The position numbers and the translations under genes were made by a program. DNA of 64,000 nucleotides from Chloroflexota bacterium. GTDB taxonomy: Bacteria > Chloroflexota > Anaerolineae > UBA4142. The stretch lies in contig JACRBM010000039.1 in assembly GCA_016219275.1 (NCBI GenBank), forward strand, positions 24,751 to 88,750, read 5' to 3'. Below are positions 16,932-60,711 of the stretch, in pieces; positions within the stretch are counted from its first letter, which is position 1; every line of letters starts with the position of its first letter. Under the pieces are notes generated by a model that worked only from the letters and a program-made list of their open reading frames with translations, was not told where the DNA came from and did no database searches.

Positions 16932-17007
16932 GGACGCGGATGAGCAAGGATGAACACGGATAATTATTTTCATCTGCGTTTATCCACGCGCACAGCGATC
17001 CGCGTCC
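16932..17007. repeat. Repeat family C copy 1: MITE-like element with termini GGACGCGGAT...ATCCGCGTCC
   Basis: It has terminal IRs with an AT-rich centre. Copies also lie at 30218, 56579, with half copies at 49126 and 60679. Confidence 0.75.
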
Positions 17008-17071: not shown

Positions 17072-19126
17072 TTGAATTTTTGCGTCGCTTGGGTTATACT
17101 CTGCCCCGTGCCTTCACCCACTTTATCTTTTCGCCTGCCCTGGCGCGACCTCGCTATTTGCGGCGCAATCGTTTTGCTCGCCGCGTGTTTGCGTTTGTAC
17201 GCGCTCGACGCGCTGCCGCCCGGGTTGCACTACGACGAAGCATTCAACGCGACGATGGCGCGCAACGTTCAACTCGGTATCGAGCGTCCGATCTTTTTCC
17301 GCGAAGACCTAACCGAAGAGCCGATGGCGATTTACCTCACCGCGCTCTCGTTCGCGATTTTCGGACCCAGCCCGTGGGCATTGCGATTGGTCTCGGCGCT
17401 TGCCGGGATCGCCGGCGTTGCCGCGCTCTATTTTCTCGCGCGCGCGTTCTTTGCTTCGCGTTGGTTCGCCGCGCTCGCGACGTTGATTCTCGCGATTCTG
17501 TACTGGCACATCAACTTTAGTCGGCTCGGCATGGAGCCGATTTTTACGCCGTTGATGGCGACGCTCGCGTTCGGATTTTTGTGGCGTGGGATTTACCCCC
17601 ACCCCAACCCTCTCCCGTCGGCAAAAATCGCCGACAGGAAAGAGAGCAAATTCCCTCCCTTGCAAAGCGGCGCGCAAGCGGGGCTAGGGTGGGGGCTCGC
17701 CGGAATATTTCTCGCCGCGACACTGTACACGTACAAAGCCGGACTGTTCGTGCCGATTCTCGCCGCCGCGTTCCTTGTATCGCAAATCAGTTACGCTAGC
17801 GATTTTTTGGAGCGCCACTGGCGCGGCATTCTCATTTTCGGCGTCGTTGCGATTTTGGTGTACGCGCCGCTTGGGTTATACTTTGTCGCGCACCCGGACG
17901 AATTCTGGCAACGACCGCAATCCGTCGCCGCGACGGCGAGCATCTACGAGAACGCGGTCAAGGTCGCGGGGATGTTTTTCATCGCGGGCGACGACAACCC
18001 GCGCAGTAATTTGCCCGGTCGTCCCGCGCTCGATCCGTTTCTCGCGCTCGGATTCATCGTCGGGGTCATCGTCGCGCTTGCGCGATTTCGCCGCGAGCCG
18101 CACGCGCGCTTGCTCGTGCTGTGGCTTATCGTAATGAGTTTGCCGAGCGTGCTTACCGATTTCGCGCCGCACTTTGGACGCGATCTCGCGGTCACGCCGG
18201 CGATTGCGCTGACAACCGCGTACGGATTTGCATGGCTGTTCGACCGGAGCAAACGCATCCATTTACCAATTACCATTTACGCTTTACTGCTTACCCTGGG
18301 TCTCGCGTTCAGCACATTCAACACCGCGCGCGATTATTTTATCGTGTGGGGTTCGCGCACCGGGCATTATGATTCGTTCGACGTAGGACTGTACACACTC
18401 GCACAAAAACTCCGCGAGCAACCGCGCGACACGCGCGTCTATCTCACGCCGACCGAAGCCGAGCATTACACCGCGCGCTTTGCGCTTGACGGACGCGACG
18501 CGGAATTATTCGATGGACGCCGCGTGTTGGTTCTGCCGCCTGCCGGCACGCCTGTCGCGTATGGCATCATCACACGCCAGGACACGCGCACACGCGCGCG
18601 ATTGAACGCGCTACTCGCAAATACACGCGTCGTCGAAACGATTTACGATTACACCGCGCAACCGTACGCGATCATTCTGCGCGGCGACAGCCCATCGTCC
18701 ATCGCGCCGCAAAAAAAAGTGAACGCGCGCTTGGGCGACGCGGTCGAATTGATCGGATACGATCTCGCGCGTAACGGCGATCAACTCGCGTTGACGCTGT
18801 ACTGGCGCAGTCGCGTCGAGACGCGCACCGATTGGACGGTGTTCGTTCAACTCATCGGGCAAATCAATCCGGGTGCAGGCTCGCCGGTGTGGGCGCAAGA
18901 CGATAGCCAACCCGGGCGCGATACGTTTCCCACCTCGCGTTGGCGCACGGGCGAAATCATTATTGACGAGTACCGATTGACGCTCGCCGCGTTGCCGCGC
19001 GGAGACTATTACATCGAGATTGGAATGTACGATCTAAATACTGGCGCGCGTTTGCCCGTGCTAGATGCGAACGGCGCGCGAATGGAGAGTGAGAGTGTAC
19101 AACTCGAACGACTATCGTTACCGTAA
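17072..19126 (+). CDS. GT39/GT83-family membrane glycosyltransferase (PMT/ArnT-like), paralog 3, with C-terminal soluble domain
   Basis: It has a LHYDEAFNA motif loop and multi-TM topology. Its C-terminal domain is homologous to that of paralog 1 (SPVWAQ.DS, IEIGMYD). The exact start is uncertain. Confidence 0.7.
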   Translation: MNFCVAWVILCPVPSPTLSFRLPWRDLAICGAIVLLAACLRLYALDALPPGLHYDEAFNATMARNVQLGIERPIFFREDLTEEPMAIYLTALSFAIFGPSPWALRLVSALAGIAGVAALYFLARAFFASRWFAALATLILAILYWHINFSRLGMEPIFTPLMATLAFGFLWRGIYPHPNPLPSAKIADRKESKFPPLQSGAQAGLGWGLAGIFLAATLYTYKAGLFVPILAAAFLVSQISYASDFLERHWRGILIFGVVAILVYAPLGLYFVAHPDEFWQRPQSVAATASIYENAVKVAGMFFIAGDDNPRSNLPGRPALDPFLALGFIVGVIVALARFRREPHARLLVLWLIVMSLPSVLTDFAPHFGRDLAVTPAIALTTAYGFAWLFDRSKRIHLPITIYALLLTLGLAFSTFNTARDYFIVWGSRTGHYDSFDVGLYTLAQKLREQPRDTRVYLTPTEAEHYTARFALDGRDAELFDGRRVLVLPPAGTPVAYGIITRQDTRTRARLNALLANTRVVETIYDYTAQPYAIILRGDSPSSIAPQKKVNARLGDAVELIGYDLARNGDQLALTLYWRSRVETRTDWTVFVQLIGQINPGAGSPVWAQDDSQPGRDTFPTSRWRTGEIIIDEYRLTLAALPRGDYYIEIGMYDLNTGARLPVLDANGARMESESVQLERLSLP

Positions 19127-19775
19127 CCTGACGACGCCGGCTAATTTCGCGCGGCGACGCTCACCGCCGCCGGCGTTTGTTATCCTGGCAGTGGCGGTGC
19201 TACTGGTTTGCTGTTTGTGTTCGGGGTTGGTGATCGGTTGGCAAATCAAAGACAGTGCCGTTAACCCGCTAGCCAAGCCCCAATCGGTTGGCACCGAAAC
19301 CGCGCCGGCAAATCCGTTTCAAGGATTCTCTGGTTTGTTTGGAGGCGCACGCCCCACCCCCACTCTCGATAAAAACGCGCCCGTGCCTTTGCGCGCCGCC
19401 GGCGCAGGCGAAAATGGACTCGAACTTGCCGTGCTTGGCATGCAACGTCCACTCAAGACGGACGTGCCGGTAAAATTGCCGCCGAACGAACAGTTTGTTT
19501 TGGTAAGCGTGCAAATTACGAACACGCGGCGAACGGGACAACCCGTCACGGTGAACGGAACCGATTTCAAAATCAAAGGATTCGGCGGCGTCACGTATGA
19601 TGCCAATCCCAAGACCGTGACGATTCCGCAAATTCTGAACAAACTCGATTTGCCAGCCGGCAGATCGTTGAGCGGCGAATTGATTTTCCAAATCGCGACG
19701 GACGACGGCGATTTGCGTTTGTATTGGACCTCCGGCAAGACAACGCGCGAGTTTTTGCTCGAGAAGCCGAAATGA
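19065..19775 (+). CDS. DUF4352-like exported protein (TM anchor plus beta-sandwich domain)
   Basis: It has an N-terminal TM helix (FVILAVAVLLVCCL). The C-terminal pattern FKIKGFGGVTYD...GELIFQI is typical of DUF4352. The start may instead be GTG 19089 or 19095. Confidence 0.55.
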   Translation: MRTAREWRVRVYNSNDYRYRNLTTPANFARRRSPPPAFVILAVAVLLVCCLCSGLVIGWQIKDSAVNPLAKPQSVGTETAPANPFQGFSGLFGGARPTPTLDKNAPVPLRAAGAGENGLELAVLGMQRPLKTDVPVKLPPNEQFVLVSVQITNTRRTGQPVTVNGTDFKIKGFGGVTYDANPKTVTIPQILNKLDLPAGRSLSGELIFQIATDDGDLRLYWTSGKTTREFLLEKPK

Positions 19776-22213
19776 TTTTGCTCGTCGCCACGAGTGTGTG
19801 GTTGATCGCGTTGCTGATGACCTGGGCGCGCCGCGCGCGTAACGACGCGTGGCGCGATACGCTCGCCATCGGTGCGATCGGCGCGGCGACGGCTGGCTTT
19901 TTTTGGCGCGTACTGTTCGGCGACGCGTGGATGCCGGCGGGCGGCGGCGACCTCGCGCAATTTCTGTACCCCACGTACGCGTTTGCCGCCGAATGGTGGC
20001 GACACGGCGTGATTCCGTTGTGGAATCCTTACCTCTTCGGCGGAATGCCGTTCGTCGGCGACATCCAGTCCGGCGTTTTCTATCCGCTCAATCTCCTCAC
20101 GTTTTTTCTGACGAATCCACTCACTTTTCGCGATATGGAATTTCTCTCGATTCTCCATTTCGCTATCGCGGGCGCGGGGATGTATGCGTTGTTGCGGTTT
20201 GGAAATTGTAAGTTGGAAATTGTAAGTTGGAAATTGGAGACTGCTTCTAACATCCAACTTCCAACATCTAATTTCCAACTCTCCCGCCTTGCCGCGCTCG
20301 CCGGCGCAATCGCGTTTGAGTTCAGCGATTTGTTCATCACGCATTTTGGAAATCTGAATTTGATCGCGGTCGTCGCGTGGATGCCGCTCGTGTTGTTGTT
20401 CTATCAGCGCGCGATCACCGACCGGCGTGCGTCGTTCGCCGCGATTGCCGGCATCATTCTCGCGATTGCCTTTTACGCGGGACACATCCAATCGTTCCTC
20501 ACGATTCTCATCGCGCTCGCGGCGTTCGCGGTCTACTATACATTCTTTGACCGCCGACCGCAGATGGCAGACGGCGGTCGGTGGTCGGCGGTCGGTGGTC
20601 TCATCATCGTGGGACTCGTATCGTTCGGATTATCCGCGCCTGTTCTGTTTCCGGCGCTCGAAATGACGCAACACACGCTGCGCGCCGAATTTCCGTACGA
20701 ACAAGCCGCACGATTTTCGCTGCCACCCGCGCAGTTGATCGGCTTGTTCGTCCCCGGTTTTTTCGGACGCGGACCACAAAACGCCTGGGGACCCTGGGAT
20801 CGTGTCGAGGTTGGGTACATCGGTGTGCTGCCGATTGTGCTGGCGCTGCTCGCGCTGATTCTGCGCCGCGATGCGCCCACGCGATTTTTCGGCGCGCTCG
20901 CGTTGCTGGGGCTCGCGCTCGCACTCGGCGGCTACGCGATTCTGCACGGCTGGCTCTACCAGTTCGCCCCAGGTTTTGGGCAGTTGCGCGCGCCGGCGCG
21001 ATTCATCGTCCTGTTCGATTTCGCGATTGCCACGCTCTGCGCGTTTGGTTTCGACGCGCTGTTGCGCGCGTTGCCGCGCGCGAGTGAACTCGCGTTCAAG
21101 CGCATCGTGCGCGCCGCGCCGTGGGCGTTTCTGCTCATCGCGTTGGCAACCGGCGCGAGCGCGTACACGATTCTGATCCTGGGTCAGGGACAGGACGCGG
21201 CGTTGTTCGCGCGGATGGCAAACGCGGTTAACGCGCTTGCATTCTTTTTGGTTTTGCTCGCGCTCGCGCTCGGACTCGTCCTCGCGCGCGCGACGCGATT
21301 CTTTCATCGCGTCGCGTGGGCGGCGCTCGCACTCGCGCTCATCTTTTTCGATTTGCTCTCGCTCGGCGCATACACCGACATCACGACCGACAATCCTGCG
21401 CGCGTGTACGAGCATCCCGATGCCGTCGCGTTTCTCAAGAGTGCGGGGCTGTATCGCATTGACCCGCGCGGCACCGGCGTGGATTCGCTCTGGACTGCCG
21501 ACACGGCTTTGTTGTACAACCTGTTCGATGTCGGCGGCGACAATCCGCTCGTGCTCGCCGATTTTGACCGCTACTGGGAATCGCTCGGCAGTCGTTCGAC
21601 GCGGCTGTACGATTTGCTCAACGTCAGGTACGTGATCGGGCGCAAGAACATTGCGCTCGACCGCGAAAAATTCCGGGTTGCATTCGACGGTGATCCTGCT
21701 GTGAATATCTACGAGAACACGCGCGTTCTCCCGCGTGCCTTTGTCGTCTTTGACGCACGCGTCGTGCCGGACAAGTCTGCGGCACTTGCCGCGATTCACG
21801 CGGAGGATTTCGAGCCGGCGCGAATGGTCGTGCTGGAGAAAGCAATGAACAGTGAACAGTCAACAGTGAACAGTCAACAGTCAACAGTGAACAGTGAACA
21901 GTCAGCGGTCAAAATAGTTGGTTACGGACCGAATGACATTGTGATGGAGATGAATACATCGAGCGCGGGCGTGCTCGTGTTGAGCGAGGTGTACTACCCA
22001 GGATGGCAAGCGTGGGTGGACGATCAGGCAACGCCGGTGTTGCGTGCGAATTACTTGTTTCGCGCGGTAGAATTGCCGGCAGGTGCACATCGCGTTCGGT
22101 TCAAGTACGCGCCGATGACGATCAATATCGGCGCGGGACTCGCGATGCTGACGGTTGGGTTGTTGATTGGCGCGGGGGTGTGGAGGAAATTACAACGGAC
22201 AACTGCGGATTAA
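19772..22213 (+). CDS. YfhO-family polytopic membrane protein (putative lipid-linked glycosyltransferase)
   Basis: Its ATG overlaps the previous stop (ATGA). It has 12+ TM helices and a C-terminal extracytoplasmic domain. It contains two in-frame repeat insertions. Confidence 0.7.
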   Translation: MILLVATSVWLIALLMTWARRARNDAWRDTLAIGAIGAATAGFFWRVLFGDAWMPAGGGDLAQFLYPTYAFAAEWWRHGVIPLWNPYLFGGMPFVGDIQSGVFYPLNLLTFFLTNPLTFRDMEFLSILHFAIAGAGMYALLRFGNCKLEIVSWKLETASNIQLPTSNFQLSRLAALAGAIAFEFSDLFITHFGNLNLIAVVAWMPLVLLFYQRAITDRRASFAAIAGIILAIAFYAGHIQSFLTILIALAAFAVYYTFFDRRPQMADGGRWSAVGGLIIVGLVSFGLSAPVLFPALEMTQHTLRAEFPYEQAARFSLPPAQLIGLFVPGFFGRGPQNAWGPWDRVEVGYIGVLPIVLALLALILRRDAPTRFFGALALLGLALALGGYAILHGWLYQFAPGFGQLRAPARFIVLFDFAIATLCAFGFDALLRALPRASELAFKRIVRAAPWAFLLIALATGASAYTILILGQGQDAALFARMANAVNALAFFLVLLALALGLVLARATRFFHRVAWAALALALIFFDLLSLGAYTDITTDNPARVYEHPDAVAFLKSAGLYRIDPRGTGVDSLWTADTALLYNLFDVGGDNPLVLADFDRYWESLGSRSTRLYDLLNVRYVIGRKNIALDREKFRVAFDGDPAVNIYENTRVLPRAFVVFDARVVPDKSAALAAIHAEDFEPARMVVLEKAMNSEQSTVNSQQSTVNSEQSAVKIVGYGPNDIVMEMNTSSAGVLVLSEVYYPGWQAWVDDQATPVLRANYLFRAVELPAGAHRVRFKYAPMTINIGAGLAMLTVGLLIGAGVWRKLQRTTAD
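20203..20292 (+). repeat. Tandem plus inverted repeat element (ggaaattgtaagtt x2 ... aatttccaactc) inserted in frame in YfhO-family CDS
   Basis: It forms an imperfect palindrome around the gttggaaatt core and encodes GNCKLEIVSWKLETASNIQLPTSNFQLS. Confidence 0.7.
21848..21903 (+). repeat. Heptanucleotide tandem array (AACAGTS)x8 inside the YfhO-family CDS, in frame
   Basis: It encodes NSEQSTVNSQQSTVNSEQS and has the same CAGTGNN periodicity as the intergenic arrays at 50456 and 53343. Confidence 0.8.
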
Positions 22214-22263
22214 ACGGATAAGAGTAATACAAGTCCCATCCGCTTGTCCGTTGTTGTCCGTTG

Positions 22264-22799
22264 TTATTTTTGTGCGAGCAACTCTTCCAACTTGGCGATG
22301 AACTCGCGCTCGGTCATGTACGAGCTATCGCGCGTGATCGGACCGAGTGCGTTGCCGCTCAAGGTGCCATCCTTGGCAACAAAGAATGTTTCGGGCACGC
22401 CTTTGATGCGATACAACGGATTAATCACGCCGCCCAGATCGGGTCCGTTGAGATAGGTGATGTCGAATTCTTTGAGATACGCGCGCGCGTTCGGCTCGAC
22501 ATCGTTGTAATCAATTCCGATGAACACGACGCCGCGATCTTTGTACTGCCGCCACGTCTTTTCGAGAAACGCCGCTTCGTCGCGGCACGGACCGCACCAC
22601 GATGCCCAGAAATTGATGACGACAACCTTGCCGCGAAAATCGGACAATTTGACCGTTTTATCGTCGAACGTTTTGAGCGTGAAATCGGGGGCGGGTCCCG
22701 TGCCGGGTTGAACCGCGGAACGCTGGCGCAAACCGAATGCGAAAAAACCAATGACGCCGATCACAGTGGCAAACACGATATATTGACCCCAACGTGGCA
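22264..22799 (-). CDS. TlpA/ResA-like thiol-disulfide oxidoreductase (thioredoxin fold, membrane-anchored)
   Basis: It has an N-terminal TM helix and a WCGPC active-site motif. A GTG start is assumed, because the longer ORF upstream is Arg-rich and not protein-like. Confidence 0.7.
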
Positions 22800-23352: not shown

Positions 23353-23402
23353 CTCTGCAACTATCGCACTAACGCACTATCGCACTAACGCACTATCGCA
23401 CT
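23353..23402. repeat. Tandem repeat (cgcactaacgcactat x3)
   Basis: It is seen directly between the ccmH-like start and the GT2-like stop. Confidence 0.7.
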
Positions 23403-24666
23403 AACGAACCCCATCATACGCCCAGGGCACGTACGTTTGCCACCGCTGCACCAGATAGGGCTTTTGCTCGGCGAACGCTTGCGCCTGGGCTTGAATCGCT
23501 TGCTCCACCGCGTCGAGCTTGCCGCCGGTATCCCGCAAGATCGCCGCCGTGCGCGCATAGTACAGCGGCAATAACGCGGCGACCACTTTATCCGGATCGC
23601 TCTCGCCTTTGTTGTACACGACCGCGAAATCAAAGACGACGCGCGACCAGAGTTCGGCGGAGAAATTCATCGCGCCGCGGGGCTTGTTCGCGAGTTCGTT
23701 CACCTCGGTGAAATTGCTCGGCGACATGATGCTCCGCCACAAACGTCGAAAGCGCCGCGCGCCGGAACTGAACGCGTCGGAAAGCATGTTCAGCGTGATC
23801 GCGGCGGTGAGGCGCGGTTGGTCCGCGGCGATGCCGTTGCCGTGAAACGGCGCAAGGCGTTGCGGACGCGTGCCCTCTGCCCAACGTCGCCGATAAATAT
23901 CCATCATTCGAAACAGCGTGCCCACCGATTGCACGAAACCTGGGTCGAACGACGTGGCGGCTTCGCGATTGTCTTCGATCTTGGTGCCGAGCCGCACCTG
24001 GCACATCTTGATATTTTCATTGATCGCGATCGTCGTGAGCCAGATGTCAATGCCATGCCGCGCCACGTCGGTTTCCCACACGTCGCGATCAAAGATGCGC
24101 CCCGCTAGTTCGCCCGAGACGGCGAAATCGCCGCCCATCGGTTGGCGCACGTCCACGCCGTACAGCATCCGCGTCAACGGATACGCGAGAATGTCGGTGA
24201 CCGCGCCTTCGACGAGCGGACGTGCGTACGTCGGCACGACGTACGCGTAATCGCCCTTCAGAATCGGCTCGCACAGTTTGGGAATCCATTCGCGCGTGAT
24301 CGTCACCAAATCGGCTTCGAGTACAATGCACACCTGGGCTTTGAGCGCGCGCGTCATTTCGAAAATCGCGCGTACGGCGCTCCCTTTGCCCTGGATGCCT
24401 TGATACGTCGTGACGATGCGCCGAACAGCGACCGGCAAAACCTGGGCAGCGGCGATGTGCGGCGTCTCATCCGACGAACCGCCGTCCACCACCCCGATGA
24501 CCGGGCGCAAGGTGGGATAAAAAGTCACCAACCCTTCCGCCGCGCGCTCCATCACCAAGCCAATCGTGTTCGCGTTCTTGTAACTAGGAATCCCTACGAC
24601 GATATCTGCGCTACCAATTTCCGCCAGACGTCTCTGTCCATCTGTCCGCAGTGAAGTCTCATACAT
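23401..24666 (-). CDS. GT2-like cytoplasmic glycosyltransferase
   Basis: It has an IVVGIPSYKNANTIG N-terminus and a VVDGGSSDET motif, consistent with the GT-A fold. Confidence 0.6.
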   Translation of the reverse strand: MYETSLRTDGQRRLAEIGSADIVVGIPSYKNANTIGLVMERAAEGLVTFYPTLRPVIGVVDGGSSDETPHIAAAQVLPVAVRRIVTTYQGIQGKGSAVRAIFEMTRALKAQVCIVLEADLVTITREWIPKLCEPILKGDYAYVVPTYARPLVEGAVTDILAYPLTRMLYGVDVRQPMGGDFAVSGELAGRIFDRDVWETDVARHGIDIWLTTIAINENIKMCQVRLGTKIEDNREAATSFDPGFVQSVGTLFRMMDIYRRRWAEGTRPQRLAPFHGNGIAADQPRLTAAITLNMLSDAFSSGARRFRRLWRSIMSPSNFTEVNELANKPRGAMNFSAELWSRVVFDFAVVYNKGESDPDKVVAALLPLYYARTAAILRDTGGKLDAVEQAIQAQAQAFAEQKPYLVQRWQTYVPWAYDGVR

Positions 24667-24687: not shown

Positions 24688-26016
24688 TCACTTGCCCGCC
24701 GTGGCGATATTCCGCGCGGCTTCTTCCGCTGTGATTTGTCCTTTCCACACAGCCGGGATCACCGCGCGCCACACCTCCGCGGACTTGGCATACGCCGACG
24801 CGGTCGGCATGAATGCGGCGCGCTCCAATTGCTCGCGTAAGAACGCGGCATAGTCCGGCGGCTCGACGGCTAACGCCAACGTACCACGATGCGCCGGCAA
24901 ACGTCGCGCCGCGCGCAGCCAAGTCGCCAACCGGTCGCTTTGAATGAGCCAACGAATAAAGCGCGTGGCGATCGCTTGGCGCGCCGGTTCACGCGCCGTA
25001 ATCCCCAGACCCCAGCCCACCACCAGCGCCGCGCCGCGTCCATCGCGCGTGGGCAAGGGCGCGAACGTCGCGTTCGGTACCTGCGCCCGCTCCGTCATGT
25101 AACGCGACGCGGACACGTGCGCCATCGCGACCTGACCTTGGGCAAACGGCAACCAGGTTTCTTCCACGCTCTTCAAACCGAGCGCCGTGTCGGGAATCGC
25201 TCCCACATCATGTCCGCGTTTGAAAAAATCGAGCACCAGCGCGGTTGCCGCCGGATCGAACGCGACCGGACTTGCCTTCGTGTCCATTGTCGTGAGCGCG
25301 CTGTATTGCAACAGAAACGCGTCATCACTCGCGATCGGCATCAACCACGTTTGCTTTTGCCTCAATACATCATCCCAGGTTCGCGGCGGCTTGGGCACGA
25401 GCGTCTTGTCGTAGACGAGGTGCTGCACATCCACCGCCAACGGCGCCAGCATCCAGCGTCCATTCAACTGCGCGGCTTGCTTGGCAAAGGGAAACAATCC
25501 ATCGCGCCAATCCGCCGGCATCCACTCGTCGAACGCTTGCAACACATCTACCGCTTGGGACGCTTCCGCCAAATCCAGCGCGACCACATCGGGCATCCGC
25601 GCCGGAATCACCGCGTTCGTCGTCAGCAAAAAATCAAGGATGCCGCCTTTGCCGTATGGCTTTTTGAAAACGATGTCAATTTGAACGTTCGGATTTGCCG
25701 CGAGGAACGCATCCACTTGCTCTTTGAACACGCGTCCCGCCGGCGACGCGCCCGGCGCTAGGTCTTCGGTCGTCCAGAAGACCAGCACCACGCCATCGCC
25801 CGTCGGCGTCGGCGTGCGTGCGAGAGGTACTGTGGGCGCAACCGTCGCGGTTCGCGTTGGCGCGGGCGTGACGCTAAACGTCGGCGCGGCGGTGTTCGTC
25901 GCGCGCGCGGGCGTCAGCACACGCGCGTCAGGTGTTAAACTCGCGCACGCGGTTGCGAGCATCAACGCGAGCAAACAAATAATTCCACGCGCCGCGAGTT
26001 GTCCTCTCAGATTCAT
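24688..26016 (-). CDS. ABC transporter sugar-type substrate-binding lipoprotein (SBP family 1)
   Basis: It has a lipoprotein signal peptide (LALMLATAC) and a Thr/Pro-rich linker. No permease genes are adjacent. Confidence 0.65.
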   Translation of the reverse strand: MNLRGQLAARGIICLLALMLATACASLTPDARVLTPARATNTAAPTFSVTPAPTRTATVAPTVPLARTPTPTGDGVVLVFWTTEDLAPGASPAGRVFKEQVDAFLAANPNVQIDIVFKKPYGKGGILDFLLTTNAVIPARMPDVVALDLAEASQAVDVLQAFDEWMPADWRDGLFPFAKQAAQLNGRWMLAPLAVDVQHLVYDKTLVPKPPRTWDDVLRQKQTWLMPIASDDAFLLQYSALTTMDTKASPVAFDPAATALVLDFFKRGHDVGAIPDTALGLKSVEETWLPFAQGQVAMAHVSASRYMTERAQVPNATFAPLPTRDGRGAALVVGWGLGITAREPARQAIATRFIRWLIQSDRLATWLRAARRLPAHRGTLALAVEPPDYAAFLREQLERAAFMPTASAYAKSAEVWRAVIPAVWKGQITAEEAARNIATAGK

Positions 26017-27313: not shown

Positions 27314-28484
27314 TCCACGCGATTCGCGCCTGCTTGCGCGGCTCGCCGCACTCAAGGACACGCCGGCGCGCGATCCGAACGCCGCCACGCACGGGCGCGA
27401 ACAATTCCTCGCGCAAGCGCGCGCGCTCCAGCCGACCGTGCCACGCGCGCGGCTTGGTCTCTTGCCGCGCCTGGCATTCGCGTTCAGCATCGTCCTCGTC
27501 TTGCTCATCATTACGACCGGCGCGACGGTCTACGCCGCGCAAGACGCCTTGCCGAACGACGCGCTCTATCCAGTGAAATTGTGGAGCGAAGACGCGCGGC
27601 TCGCGTGGACGAACGAGCCGGACGCGCGCGCGACTATTTTGCTCAACTTTGCCGACCGACGCGCCGCCGAAATTTCGGCGATCAGCGCGAGCGGCGGTGC
27701 GGTCTCCGATCAAACGCTTGCGCGCATGCAAACCCAGATCGAGGATGCGTTGAACGCGTCGGCAAACCTGGACAACGCGCAACTCGCGCGTCAACTCGAA
27801 CTGCAACAACAACGCGTCCAGGCATGGACGCGCACGCTCGAACAAGCCGAAACGAACGCGCCCGCGTCCACCGCGCCGATCTTGCAGCGCACGCGCGGCA
27901 TGTTGGAGGAACGCCGCGCGTTGATCGAAACCGGTTTGCAGAATCCCGCCGCGTTTCGCACGCGCGTCATCGAACGCGCGCAAACACCGCTCCCGCCGCC
28001 GACCGCGTGGCACGCGCCAATCCCCTCCGCGACCTTCACACGATTGCCGCGTCCAACGGACATTCCACACACCGCGTCGCCGCGCCCCATCGAACCGCCA
28101 CCGACATTTGCGCCGACGCCACAACCGATGCCGACGGCACCAAGCATCATCATCGCAACGCCGCCGATTTTGCAAACTCGGTTGGCAACTCCACCGCGTC
28201 TCGGCACACCCGGCGCGGTGATGACCGAGTTCGCGACTCGCTTCGCTACGCCCGGCGCGATGATGACCGAATTCGCGACTCGCTTCGCTACGCCGATAAA
28301 TATCCCGCCGGGATTTACACCGCCGCCAGGGTTCACACCACCTGCGCCGCCGGGTTTCACACCCCCCGCGCCGAACCCGGGCAGTCCACCCCCCAAACCG
28401 CCGCCGGGTTTCACACCCCCCGCGCCACCGCCGCCGCCACCCGCGACGAAACCGCCATCGAATTTCGCGACGCCGCGGAGATAG
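27297..28484 (+). CDS. Putative anti-sigma factor with TM helix, DUF5667-like domain and Pro-rich repetitive C-terminus
   Basis: It overlaps the sigma gene by 17 nt. It has a single TM (FAFSIVLVLLIITTGATV) and a GFTPP(A)P repeat tail. Confidence 0.6.
   Translation: MNNPADPRDSRLLARLAALKDTPARDPNAATHGREQFLAQARALQPTVPRARLGLLPRLAFAFSIVLVLLIITTGATVYAAQDALPNDALYPVKLWSEDARLAWTNEPDARATILLNFADRRAAEISAISASGGAVSDQTLARMQTQIEDALNASANLDNAQLARQLELQQQRVQAWTRTLEQAETNAPASTAPILQRTRGMLEERRALIETGLQNPAAFRTRVIERAQTPLPPPTAWHAPIPSATFTRLPRPTDIPHTASPRPIEPPPTFAPTPQPMPTAPSIIIATPPILQTRLATPPRLGTPGAVMTEFATRFATPGAMMTEFATRFATPINIPPGFTPPPGFTPPAPPGFTPPAPNPGSPPPKPPPGFTPPAPPPPPPATKPPSNFATPRR
28210..28293 (+). repeat. In-frame 42-bp tandem duplication in anti-sigma gene (PGAVMTEFATRFAT x2)
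   Basis: The two units differ at 3 positions. Confidence 0.8.
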
Positions 28485-28603
28485 AAACGACCACTGACAA
28501 CCGACCGCCGACCGCCGATGGATTGAACGACGGTCGGCGGTCTGCCGTCTGCAGTCATACGTCACCCTCTTGCAATCCGCATTCGCGCGGGTATAATCGT
28601 GCC

Positions 28604-30142
28604 ATGACAAACTTACTCCTAACCAACGGTACGATTTACACGCTCGATCCCACCCACCCCCGCGCGAACGCGATCGCGTTCGATGCCGGTCGCGTCGTCG
28701 CGTTCGACGACGATGCGATGGCAACACGCACCGCGCGAACCCAGGTCATTGACCTGCGCGGACGCGCGGTCATTCCTGGGTTGGTTGACCACCACATTCA
28801 TTTCACCGCGTACGCCACGAGTCTCGCGCGCGTGCAACTGGACGGCGCGCGTTCGCTCGGCGAAGCGGTTGCGCGGGTCGCCGCGCGCGTTGCAACGACA
28901 AAACCGGGCGAATGGATCATCGGGCTGGGGTGGAATCACCTGGATTGGCGCGACCCAGTTTTTCCATCGAAAACGCCGCTCGACGCGATTGCGCCGAACA
29001 ATCCGGTCGCGCTCGACCGCAAGGATGGACACTCGGCGTGGGTCAACTCGGTCGCGCTGCGAATCGCGCGCATCACGCGCGATTCGCCCGACCCGGCGGG
29101 CGGTGTGATTGATCGCGACGCCTCCGGCGAACCGACCGGTGTTCTGCGCGAAAACGCCATCGAGTTGCTCGGCGGCAACATTGGATTTGACGCGGGCGAA
29201 ATCTCAGAAGAGGTTTTGCTTAACGCGATTCATCGCGCGCATCAGCTCGGCATCGTCGGCATTCACAACGTCGAAGGCGCGGACGCGTTGCGCGCGTTTC
29301 AAAAACTGCGCGCTCAGGACAAATTGAATTTGCATGTGACGCACATGATTCCGGCGGACAATTTGCAACACGCGCGCGCGCTCGGTTTGCGCGGCGGACT
29401 GGGTGACGTGTGGTTGAAAATCGGCGGCATCAAAATGTTCGCCGATGGTTCGCTCGGTTCGCTGACCGCGTGGATGCTCGAACCATTCGAACAGCAACCC
29501 AACAATCGCGGCGTATCCACGCGACCGACGAATGAAATTGAAGCGCTTGCGCGCGAGGCAGCACAAGCCGAGATGATGGTTTGCACGCACGCGATTGGCG
29601 ACCGCGCGAATCGCGAGGTGTTGAACGTGTACGAAAAACTCCGCCGCGAAGGACTGGGCGCGCCGCTGCGCATCGAGCACGCGCAACATTTGGATGCCGC
29701 CGATATTCCGCGCTTTGGTGCGCTGAACGTGATCGCTTCGATGCAACCGATTCACGCGACGAGCGATTACAAAATGGTTGACGATTCTCTCGGCGCGCGC
29801 GGGCGTCATTCGTATGCGTTCAAAAGTCTGCTGAACGCGGGCGCGCGTTTGCAATTCGGGAGCGATTGTCCGGTCGAAACGCTCGATCCCTGGGTCGGCA
29901 TTCACGCGGCGGTCACGCGCGAACGCGCGAACGGCGAACCGCGCGGTGGATGGTATCCCGCAGAAAAACTTTCGCTCGAAGAAACTCTGCGCGCGTACGC
30001 GAGTGGAATTCTAGCGGTTGCAGGTCGCGGCGTGACGAGCGACGCGCTCGTCTTGTCGCACGATATTTTCGCCGTGCCGCCGCGTGAGATTCTCGACACG
30101 CGCGTAGAGTGCGCGGTGGTCGGTGGGCGCGTGGTCATCTGA
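28604..30142 (+). CDS. Amidohydrolase family metal-dependent hydrolase (Amidohydro_3)
   Basis: A DHHIHF metal-binding motif follows an N-terminal beta-sandwich domain. The protein is 513 aa. Confidence 0.75.
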
Positions 30143-30217: not shown

Positions 30218-30293
30218 GGACGCGGATTCACGCGAATTTTCGCGCATAAGAAAATATCTCCGCGCGCGAAGCGATCTGCGTTCATCCGCGTCC
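30218..30293. repeat. Repeat family C copy 2
   Basis: It is ggacgcggattcacgcg...ttcatccgcgtcc. Confidence 0.75.
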
Positions 30294-37791: not shown

Positions 37792-37842
37792 TCATCCGTT
37801 TATCCGTTTCCCATCCGTTTCCCATCCGTTTCCCATCCGTTA
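37792..37842. repeat. Tandem repeat (tcccatccgtt x4, preceded by atccgtttatccgtt)
   Basis: It is seen directly and lies at the 3' end of the iscA-like gene. Confidence 0.7.
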
Positions 37843-49125: not shown

Positions 49126-49156
49126 AATCCGCGTTTATCCGCGTTCATCCGCGTCC
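49126..49156. repeat. Repeat family C half copy (aatccgcgtttatccgcgttcatccgcgtcc)
   Basis: It has only the right arm, with ATCCGCGTT triplication. Confidence 0.6.
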
Positions 49157-50455: not shown

Positions 50456-50514
50456 GGTTCAGTGTTCAGTCTTCAGTAATCAGTATTCAGTACGCGACTG
50501 AATACTGAACACTG
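50456..50514. repeat. Heptamer array (TTCAGTN)x5 plus inverted copy, immediately upstream of LarA-like start
   Basis: It is ggttcagtgttcagtcttcagtaatcagtattcagtacgcgactgaatactgaacactg. Confidence 0.75.
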
Positions 50515-50522
50515 CAGACTAT

Positions 50523-53342: not shown

Positions 53343-53392
53343 GTGAACCGTGAACAGTGTTCAGTGTTCAGTATGCAGTGTTCAGAATTCAG
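53343..53392. repeat. Heptamer array (CAGTGNN)n immediately upstream of LacI start
   Basis: It is gtgaaccgtgaacagtgttcagtgttcagtatgcagtgttcagaattcag. Confidence 0.75.
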
Positions 53393-56578: not shown

Positions 56579-56648
56579 GGACGCGGATTAACGCGGATGC
56601 ACGCGGATAAAATGAAAATCCGCGTTTGTCCGCGTTAATCCGCGTTCC
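56579..56648. repeat. Repeat family C copy 4
   Basis: It is ggacgcggattaacgcggatgcacgcggataaaatgaaaatccgcgtttgtccgcgttaatccgcgttcc. Confidence 0.75.
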
Positions 56649-60678: not shown

Positions 60679-60711
60679 TTTATCCGCGTTCGTCCGCGTT
60701 TGTCCGCGTCC
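60679..60711. repeat. Repeat family C half copy (tttatccgcgttcgtccgcgtttgtccgcgtcc)
   Basis: It has only the right arm. Confidence 0.6.

Follow-up and report, generated by a model that had tools for sequence, protein, structure and literature searches.

Simple repeats kept in frame in the loops of a YfhO-family membrane-protein gene from an Anaerolineae bacterium are probably passengers

The gene considered here, at 19772..22213 on the plus strand, encodes a YfhO-family membrane protein and lies in a 64,000-nucleotide (nt) window of a Chloroflexota genome (Anaerolineae; UBA4142; assembly GCA_016219275.1, contig JACRBM010000039.1, forward-strand positions 24,751 to 88,750); coordinates below are those of this window unless another locus is named. 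Its coding sequence contains three repeat elements, designated sites A, B and C. It seems probable that these are simple repeats drawn from a population that extends across the lineage, filtered by selection and retained in permissive loops, where they are passengers and not a regulatory device; a role as a switch is unlikely. A previous sequence-only reading of this DNA had reported two in-frame elements in the gene, a claim that is borne out and that we extend to three in-frame elements and a further hairpin across the stop codon.

The 813-amino-acid (aa) product matched the Pfam profile PF09586 (YfhO) with a score of 95.1 bits against a gathering cut-off of 28.5, and the same domain was present in 120 of 120 homologues among the matches listed in a homology search, which also returned an identical NCBI sequence annotated as "YfhO family protein" from a Chloroflexota metagenome-assembled genome. 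A sequence search of the PDB gave no match for the protein, and a fold search was used instead. The AlphaFold2 model, computed from an alignment of 46 orthologues (mean predicted local distance difference test score, pLDDT, 80; predicted template modelling score, pTM, 0.84), has about 14 helices forming a membrane domain, a beta-rich domain at residues 533-781 and a closing helix at 782-812. The top structural matches found by Foldseek were the GT-C glycosyltransferases AftD, EmbB, AftA, PglB and STT3, and D60 of the GGGDL motif was invariant in the 46-protein alignment. The predicted architecture agrees with that described for B. subtilis YfhO (PMC5836110), and the model indicates that the window protein is a predicted GT-C-fold glycosyltransferase of the YfhO family. 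Helix counting from the GGGD60 loop and the positive-inside rule, rather than a computed topology, would place the loops at A and B in the cytoplasm and C in a surface loop of the extracytoplasmic domain; the latter position had also been proposed earlier for C, and it is supported by the model and by the B. subtilis architecture.

Site A is composed of two arms. The 5' arm (20199..20238, plus strand) holds 2.7 copies of a 14-nt unit (TTGGAAA/TTGTAAG), identified as (TTGGAAATTGTAAG)x2.7 by Tandem Repeats Finder (TRF) and a repeat search and read as CKLEIVSWKLE, and the 3' arm (20244..20280, plus strand) is an inverted heptamer array of the CTTCCAA type that is read as SNIQLPTSNFQ and is the pairing partner of the 5' arm. 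With arms of 34 nt that are 79% complementary, the RNA hairpin folds at -39.9 kcal/mol (z = -6.55), a stability equalled in none of 200 shuffles. An outer GCGG/CCGC stem only lengthens this hairpin, while the basal loop sequence has been replaced, leaving ends that are not definable. The tandem-plus-inverted repeat described earlier at 20203..20292 is essentially this element. Site B (20549..20600, plus strand) had been missed; it is a heptamer hairpin, made up of GACCGCCGACCGC, an 11-nt loop and (CGGCGGT/CGGTGGT)x4.1 in that order and read DRRPQMADGGRWSAVGG, with a folding energy of -40 kcal/mol (z = -4.6). The longest perfect 7-periodic run at A and B is 1.9 units. In the model, residues 148-167 of site A (pLDDT below 50) form a loop between helices 119-143 and 172-183, and residues 260-272 of site B (pLDDT about 59) form a loop between helices 239-259 and 273-299, each site coming after a transmembrane helix.

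Site C (21846..21904, plus strand) is a direct heptamer array with exactly eight AACAGT[G/C] units at 21848-21903, as previously reported, with last bases G, C, G, C, C, G, G, C followed by a degenerate AGCGGTC. Folding revealed no hairpin at this site (z = +1.9). TRF scored the array at 93 with period 7 and at 111 with period 21, and the longest perfectly periodic runs were 20 nt (2.9 units) for period 7, 34 nt for period 14 and 41 nt for period 21. The translation, NSEQSTV-NSQQSTV-NSEQSAV, shows the 21-nt period at the protein level (NSEQSTV x2.8), and residues 696-708 (pLDDT below 50) are modelled as the loop that joins strands 685-689 and 712-719 in the C-terminal beta domain, 85% of the way along the gene. 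All three sites fall between secondary-structure elements of the model.

The reading frame at site C carries the imprint of selection. A perfect (AACAGTG)n array contains one TGA per 21 nt, whichever frame is read. The window array has C as the last base of units 2, 5 and 8, which puts TCA at the exact codon where the perfect array would read TGA, and orthologues have TGG, TTA, CCG or GGG at the same codon. Because the interruptions fall exactly at the would-be TGA codons, they point to selection that keeps the frame open. If the array gained or lost one or two units, a stop would arise within it and the product would be 696 or 703 aa long, lacking the last transmembrane helix and half of the extracytoplasmic domain; a change of three units would leave the frame intact. 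The arithmetic of the sequence-only reading, in which a change of one 7-nt unit shifts the frame and truncates the protein, was right in this respect.

The orthologous loci compared with the window numbered 163, came from genomes and metagenomes and represent species-level relatives. In the 46-protein alignment A, B and C are columns of hypervariable length. At A, distant lineages show only a plain loop of 13 aa, and their loop at C, of about 18 aa, contains no repeat; alignment with these basal loops, the check proposed for the insertions, identifies A and C as in-frame extras. Short loops without repeats also occur at A in P0057, P0068 and P0044, which belong to the same clade, and for this reason we regard the elements as dispensable. 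Sequence with a period of 7 or 8 nt was found in 17-29 distinct orthologues per site, and in the genes of 80 loci arrays occurred only at residues 140-180 (29 arrays), 260-300 (11), 360-400 (10) and 680-720 (17). The stretch at 360-400 is a fourth hotspot, with its 10 arrays all in orthologues; it corresponds to a short RRDAPTR loop, probably cytoplasmic, that is free of repeats in the window gene.

The repeats that occupy these loops are diverse, and unit sequences at one site differ even between close relatives. Site C is occupied in other orthologues by the heptamers CGACCGC, GTCAGCG, GACCGTC, GGCGGAC, GAATGGC and TGGAGAT, and in a deeper clade by octamer arrays (GGGGAGCA)n in segments of 57-141 nt; in L022, L025, L027, L031, L058, L104, L122, L132, L143 and L150 the segments measure 81-141 nt and are read as GSRGAGEQ-type repeats, so that there too a non-triplet unit is kept in frame. 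Apparent GGGGAGC heptamer arrays in L025, L027 and others were rejected as such, since autocorrelation gave a period of 8. In the closest relatives, at 75% aa identity, site C has the CAACAGT family in five degenerate units and a segment exactly 21 nt shorter than that of the window, and the same family in degenerate form is common to relatives at 65-75% aa identity. The site-C segment measures 60 nt in eleven orthologues (L001, L004, L007, L009, L081-L085, L089 and L090) versus 81 nt in the window. Across the clade at 60-75% identity, site A is mostly a heptamer hairpin (z = -3 to -6) with differing sequence; z was -1.7 in L010, and the 222-nt array of L006 forms no hairpin (z = +1.8).

Elements of other kinds share these loops. 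A decamer hairpin, (ATCCGCGTTC)n, lies in frame at site B of L001, L060 and L082, and in the window it is intergenic only, at at least 5 sites. The decamer family is dispersed, often as direct plus inverted arrays, with 14 matches in the window versus 1.1 expected, all of them intergenic; its sites include 16935-16988, 30221-30290, 49127-49153, 56582-56644 and 60682-60708 in the window, 4792-4858 in L001 and 4708-4777 in L060, and it looks like a repetitive extragenic palindromic (REP) or miniature inverted-repeat transposable element (MITE) family. Hairpins resembling REP sequences were also seen in frame in various orthologue loops, at the N-terminus of P0013, at site A of L026, L027, L031 and L058 and at site B of L014, where they encode peptides such as EIPSVTLSEAKGL...ILRFAQNDM and SLRGAERRSNL...GDCFATLAMT. 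The unit pair CCATTTA/CCAATTA was found both in the neighbouring PMT_2-like gene (18259-18280, read HLPITIY) and at site B of L083, a recurrence that may reflect chance or a shared repertoire of units.

The sequence-only reading had described site C as a classic contingency architecture, in which slippage at C, and possibly at A and B, would toggle surface glycosylation. Some features of the gene agree with this: the unit is not a multiple of three, slippage by one or two units would truncate the product as described above, the gene is a hotspot for arrays, and it is predicted to encode a GT-C enzyme for surface glycans, which belong to a class that often phase-varies in pathogens. The orthologues do not follow the pattern. 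No frameshift was found at the repeats of A, B or C in any of the 163 loci, which comprised 119 distinct segments at C, 29 of them clearly periodic, 133 at B and 67 at A. The candidate shifts were set aside: an apparent frameshift at site C of L054 is a run of N at a scaffold gap; the frameshift of L145, at residue ~120, lies in non-repeat sequence and is probably a homopolymer error; and the second high-scoring segment pair of L079 and L162 is an extra downstream segment. The sole repeat-associated null allele, in L098, is a TAG produced by a point variant (unit GATTGTA, ~1135) in the site-A heptamer hairpin. L001 has an in-frame TAG at ~6020 (residue ~660), outside any repeat, that matches the truncated 673-aa protein P0088. 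The TAG alleles of L098 and L001 could represent true pseudogenes or errors of assembly. When metagenome contigs were scanned with the exact flanks, allowing 6-10 site-C units, no match was found, and the 90%-identity cluster of the protein has one member, with no relative above 90% identity in the protein collection.

The window and its relatives are rich in arrays of this kind. In the window, TRF found 18 arrays of period 7 versus 2.45 expected from composition-matched Markov-1 random sequence, 7 versus 0.6 at period 14 and 2 versus 0.05 at period 21. A census of 700 kb, in 80 orthologous loci from 80 other Anaerolineae genomes, gave 175 versus 22, 45 versus 3 and 29 versus 0 at the same periods, so that the period-7 excess is about 7-fold in the window and about 8-fold in the related loci, where periods 8 and 9 are likewise enriched. 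Among 109 perfect arrays there were 72 canonical units, which tend to be A/T-rich and have no G-quadruplex (G4) potential, and a search of these arrays for a dominant shared unit, as expected of a mobile or protein-recognised motif, found none. With units this varied, the arrays cannot be attributed to one motif or one mobile family.

Outside the YfhO gene, each strong array of the window lies between genes or at a gene boundary on our approximate gene map, and most of them are hairpins with heptamer-periodic stems. One such hairpin, (TTCAGTN)x5 with an inverted arm (50458..50517, no strand assigned; z = -5.6), lies between two minus-strand genes. A second intergenic array (53343..53385, no strand assigned) consists of GTGAACC/GTGAACA followed by (TGTTCAG)x4.4 and contains, at 53346-53368, the one intergenic recurrence of the site-C unit in the window. 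These two correspond to the CAGTGNN look-alikes that had been pointed out at 50456 and 53343.

Taken together, these data are consistent with a simple history. Arrays would arise and turn over by replication slippage, and strand or template switching is a likely route to the inverted arms at A and B. Within the enzyme, arrays last only in a few structurally unconstrained loops, where they are translated as low-complexity linker peptides. Purifying selection passes only net changes in multiples of 3 nt, which for a heptamer means three units or 21 nt, and only unit variants free of stop codons. The elements would then be dispensable passengers, akin to selfish or junk DNA carried inside a gene, and self-renewal of an array after its seeding in an ancestor offers a sufficient, if unproven, account of how they persist. 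The suggestion of the sequence-only reading that the gene is unusually tolerant of insertions fits this history.

An alternative origin for A and B is that they are mobile palindromes, of the MITE or REP type or like Rickettsia palindromic elements (RPEs), copied from elsewhere in the genome and inserted in frame. The A and B hairpins do resemble intergenic elements, and they reside in frame in loops, for which the RPEs provide a precedent as summarised in PMC10969869. The decamer family at site B of L001, L060 and L082, with its intergenic copies in the window, and the REP-like hairpin at site A of L026, L027, L031 and L058 are of the kind expected, with the decamers of L001 and L060 representing a truly dispersed family inside the gene, and the site-C unit occurs again at 53346-53368. 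For site A itself a dispersed, conserved family was not apparent: its core had no second copy in the window beyond two chance-level matches with 2 mismatches, although 64 kb samples copy number poorly. Reading the flanks of A and B by eye, with no dedicated search made, we noticed no target-site duplication and no terminal inverted repeats apart from the array. Units at one site differ between close relatives, and local expansion accounts better for the internal 7-nt periodicity. We consider mobile insertion an unlikely origin for A and B, and the earlier label "MITE-like" is doubtful given that site A is single-copy in the window and that 109 arrays comprise 72 canonical units.

Several observations sit uneasily with the view of the repeats as simple passengers. 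Of the 12 strong arrays in the window, 4 lie in the YfhO gene, which accounts for 3.8% of the sequence, and neighbouring GT-C-like membrane genes have weak arrays only. Among the 80 loci, array density in the YfhO orthologues is about twice that of the flanks (0.376 versus 0.18 per kb), a contrast sharpened by the intergenic DNA that the flanks include. Pure neutrality does not obviously predict a hotspot that is class-wide and specific to one gene. The A and B hairpins are strong (z = -4.6 to -6.5), low pLDDT in the predicted loops may come partly from alignment gaps and not from true disorder, and switching at low frequency lies beyond the reach of a species-level comparison. A further reading, to which we assign a low probability, is a conserved, gene-specific hotspot in which four loops are kept filled for a purpose by rapidly renewed 7- or 8-nt arrays and hairpins, whether for slippage-driven diversification of loop length and sequence in 21-nt steps, rare switching off or translation-pacing hairpins.

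A narrower proposal is that the hairpins act as RNA, causing translational pausing after a transmembrane helix to aid membrane insertion or serving as mRNA stabilisers or attenuators, with the hairpin selected while its sequence drifts. The strong structures at A and B, their position after transmembrane helices, the enrichment of such elements in the gene and the folding of site A far above shuffles in most orthologues of the 60-75% clade, with differing sequences, could all be understood in this way. Against it, the hairpin at A is missing from some members of the clade (P0057 and P0068, and by their z-scores L010 and L006), deeper lineages have the plain 13-aa loop, and site C is unstructured. 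An array with an inverted copy also yields a hairpin automatically, with no need for selection, and the sequences lack the base-by-base homology that a covariation test would need. An RNA function appears very unlikely on balance.

The contingency locus is highly improbable: the non-triplet unit does lie in an open reading frame (ORF), but the tract is interrupted (at most 2.9 perfect units) and close to the 3' end of the gene, it belongs to an old array family shared at 65-75% aa identity with near-constant length among relatives, no out-of-frame alleles were found among some 160 loci and the one null allele linked to a repeat comes from a point change to a nonsense codon, similar heptamer arrays abound class-wide in intergenic DNA where there is no frame to switch, and the hosts are free-living environmental organisms.

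If the repeats are frame-preserved passengers, as we think probable, they carry a caution, in that a non-triplet repeat in a surface-glycosylation gene can mimic a phase-variation switch until its composition and some 160 orthologues are considered. They also indicate that the unconstrained loops of one protein can be long-lived sites of landing and growth for several unrelated repeat types, and they mark dispensable segments of these GT-C enzymes for use in annotation and structural work. Should the hotspot prove to be selected, it would represent a new route to loop diversity, and a purposeful hotspot would amount to a mechanism akin to contingency in environmental bacteria that are free-living and filamentous.

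Other features of the region may be noted. A hairpin spans the YfhO stop codon (22192..22264, plus strand), formed by ACAACGGACAAC ... GTTGTCCGTTGT with TTGTCCGTTG x2.2 in tandem and followed by TTATTTTT; it folds at -36.5 kcal/mol (z = -6.5), its 5' arm encodes the last codons, a T-run comes after it, and it had been missed earlier. It is probably the terminator of the gene; a simple terminator scan did not flag it, its loop being over the size limit of the scan. Upstream, a PMT_2-type GT-C gene (17072..19126) and a DUF4352 gene (19065..19775) precede YfhO in an order that is conserved in L082 and L083, and the YfhO ATG overlaps the DUF4352 stop (ATGA), which suggests translational coupling. 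Downstream on the opposite strand is a thioredoxin/redoxin-like gene (22264..~22850, minus strand), both in the window and in the contig of P0002. A 16-nt array, ACTATCGCACTAACGC x2.9 (100% matches), lies at 23360-23406 and can be described as the 8-mer ACTAACGC x5.9 (87% matched), and a perfect 11-mer array, ATCCGTTTCCC x3.6, lies at 37802-37841; the first is apparently intergenic or at a gene end, as is the second, and the two show that periods besides 7 also form arrays in the window. Clustered tandem repeats of 42 nt (x2.0-2.4), 18, 24 and 27 nt at 28195-28441, within the ORF 27581..30142 (853 aa), form a protein-level repeat region, as their periods are multiples of three.

Heptanucleotide repeats are over-represented in prokaryotes, and polymerase slippage has been proposed as their origin (Mrazek et al., 2007, cited through PMC4679880 and PMC4692102). 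The arrays described here resemble the long simple sequence repeats (SSRs) of prokaryotes and the short tandemly repeated repetitive (STRR) sequences of Calothrix PCC 7601, as these are outlined in PMC4692102, in having head-to-tail 7-nt units, the greatest enrichment at period 7, an excess over chance, many different units and a mostly intergenic location. They differ in their Anaerolineae (Chloroflexota) host and in the presence of three arrays inside one ORF, where they are translated. A full-text literature search for heptanucleotide or heptameric repeats together with Chloroflexi or Anaerolineae found no paper, and the present data document for the Anaerolineae a habit already described for cyanobacteria, Xanthomonas and Beggiatoaceae. 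One cyanobacterial STRR unit is, we presume, CAACAGT, the same as at site C.

The Xanthomonas GGGAATC and Nostoc GGGGA(C/T)T repeats likewise form heptamer arrays, some of them inverted and able to form stem-loops, and the authors of that study considered a role in phase variation unlikely, the associated genes spanning all functional classes (PMC4692102). Each of those genomes has a single G-rich, quadruplex-forming motif, whereas the units here are diverse, rather A/T-rich and lack G4 potential. The TAACTGA direct repeats of Beggiatoaceae and cyanobacteria share the heptamer period and a CAGT/ACTG core, and for these it was observed that a heptamer array, once translated, is read in all three frames, so that stop codons in the unit dictate genic placement (PMC4679880), which is the logic of the TGA-to-TCA pattern at site C. 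TAACTGA is one favoured sequence that precedes start codons and for which a role in regulation has been proposed; in the YfhO gene there is no favoured unit and the arrays are internal to the ORF.

In their residence in frame within a functional gene, A and B most resemble the RPEs, reported in 2000 and recounted in PMC10969869, which are palindromic DNA that is translated in frame in a structure-compatible manner; the RPEs are dispersed, conserved families of about 150 bp, whereas A and B are 52-82 nt long, 7-nt periodic and unique in 64 kb. Heptanucleotide tracts inside Haemophilus influenzae ORFs have been proposed to mediate phase variation; they include (AATTTTG)14 in hmw1A and, in an HI1369 homologue, (AACAACC)8-13, and in some strains the ORF is reported as truncated or frameshifted (PMC2651432). 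Site C shares with these a 7-nt unit within an ORF whose frame is shifted by a one-unit change. The H. influenzae tracts are of a single motif in 8-14 units, whereas the window tract is interrupted and has no out-of-frame allele in about 160 loci.

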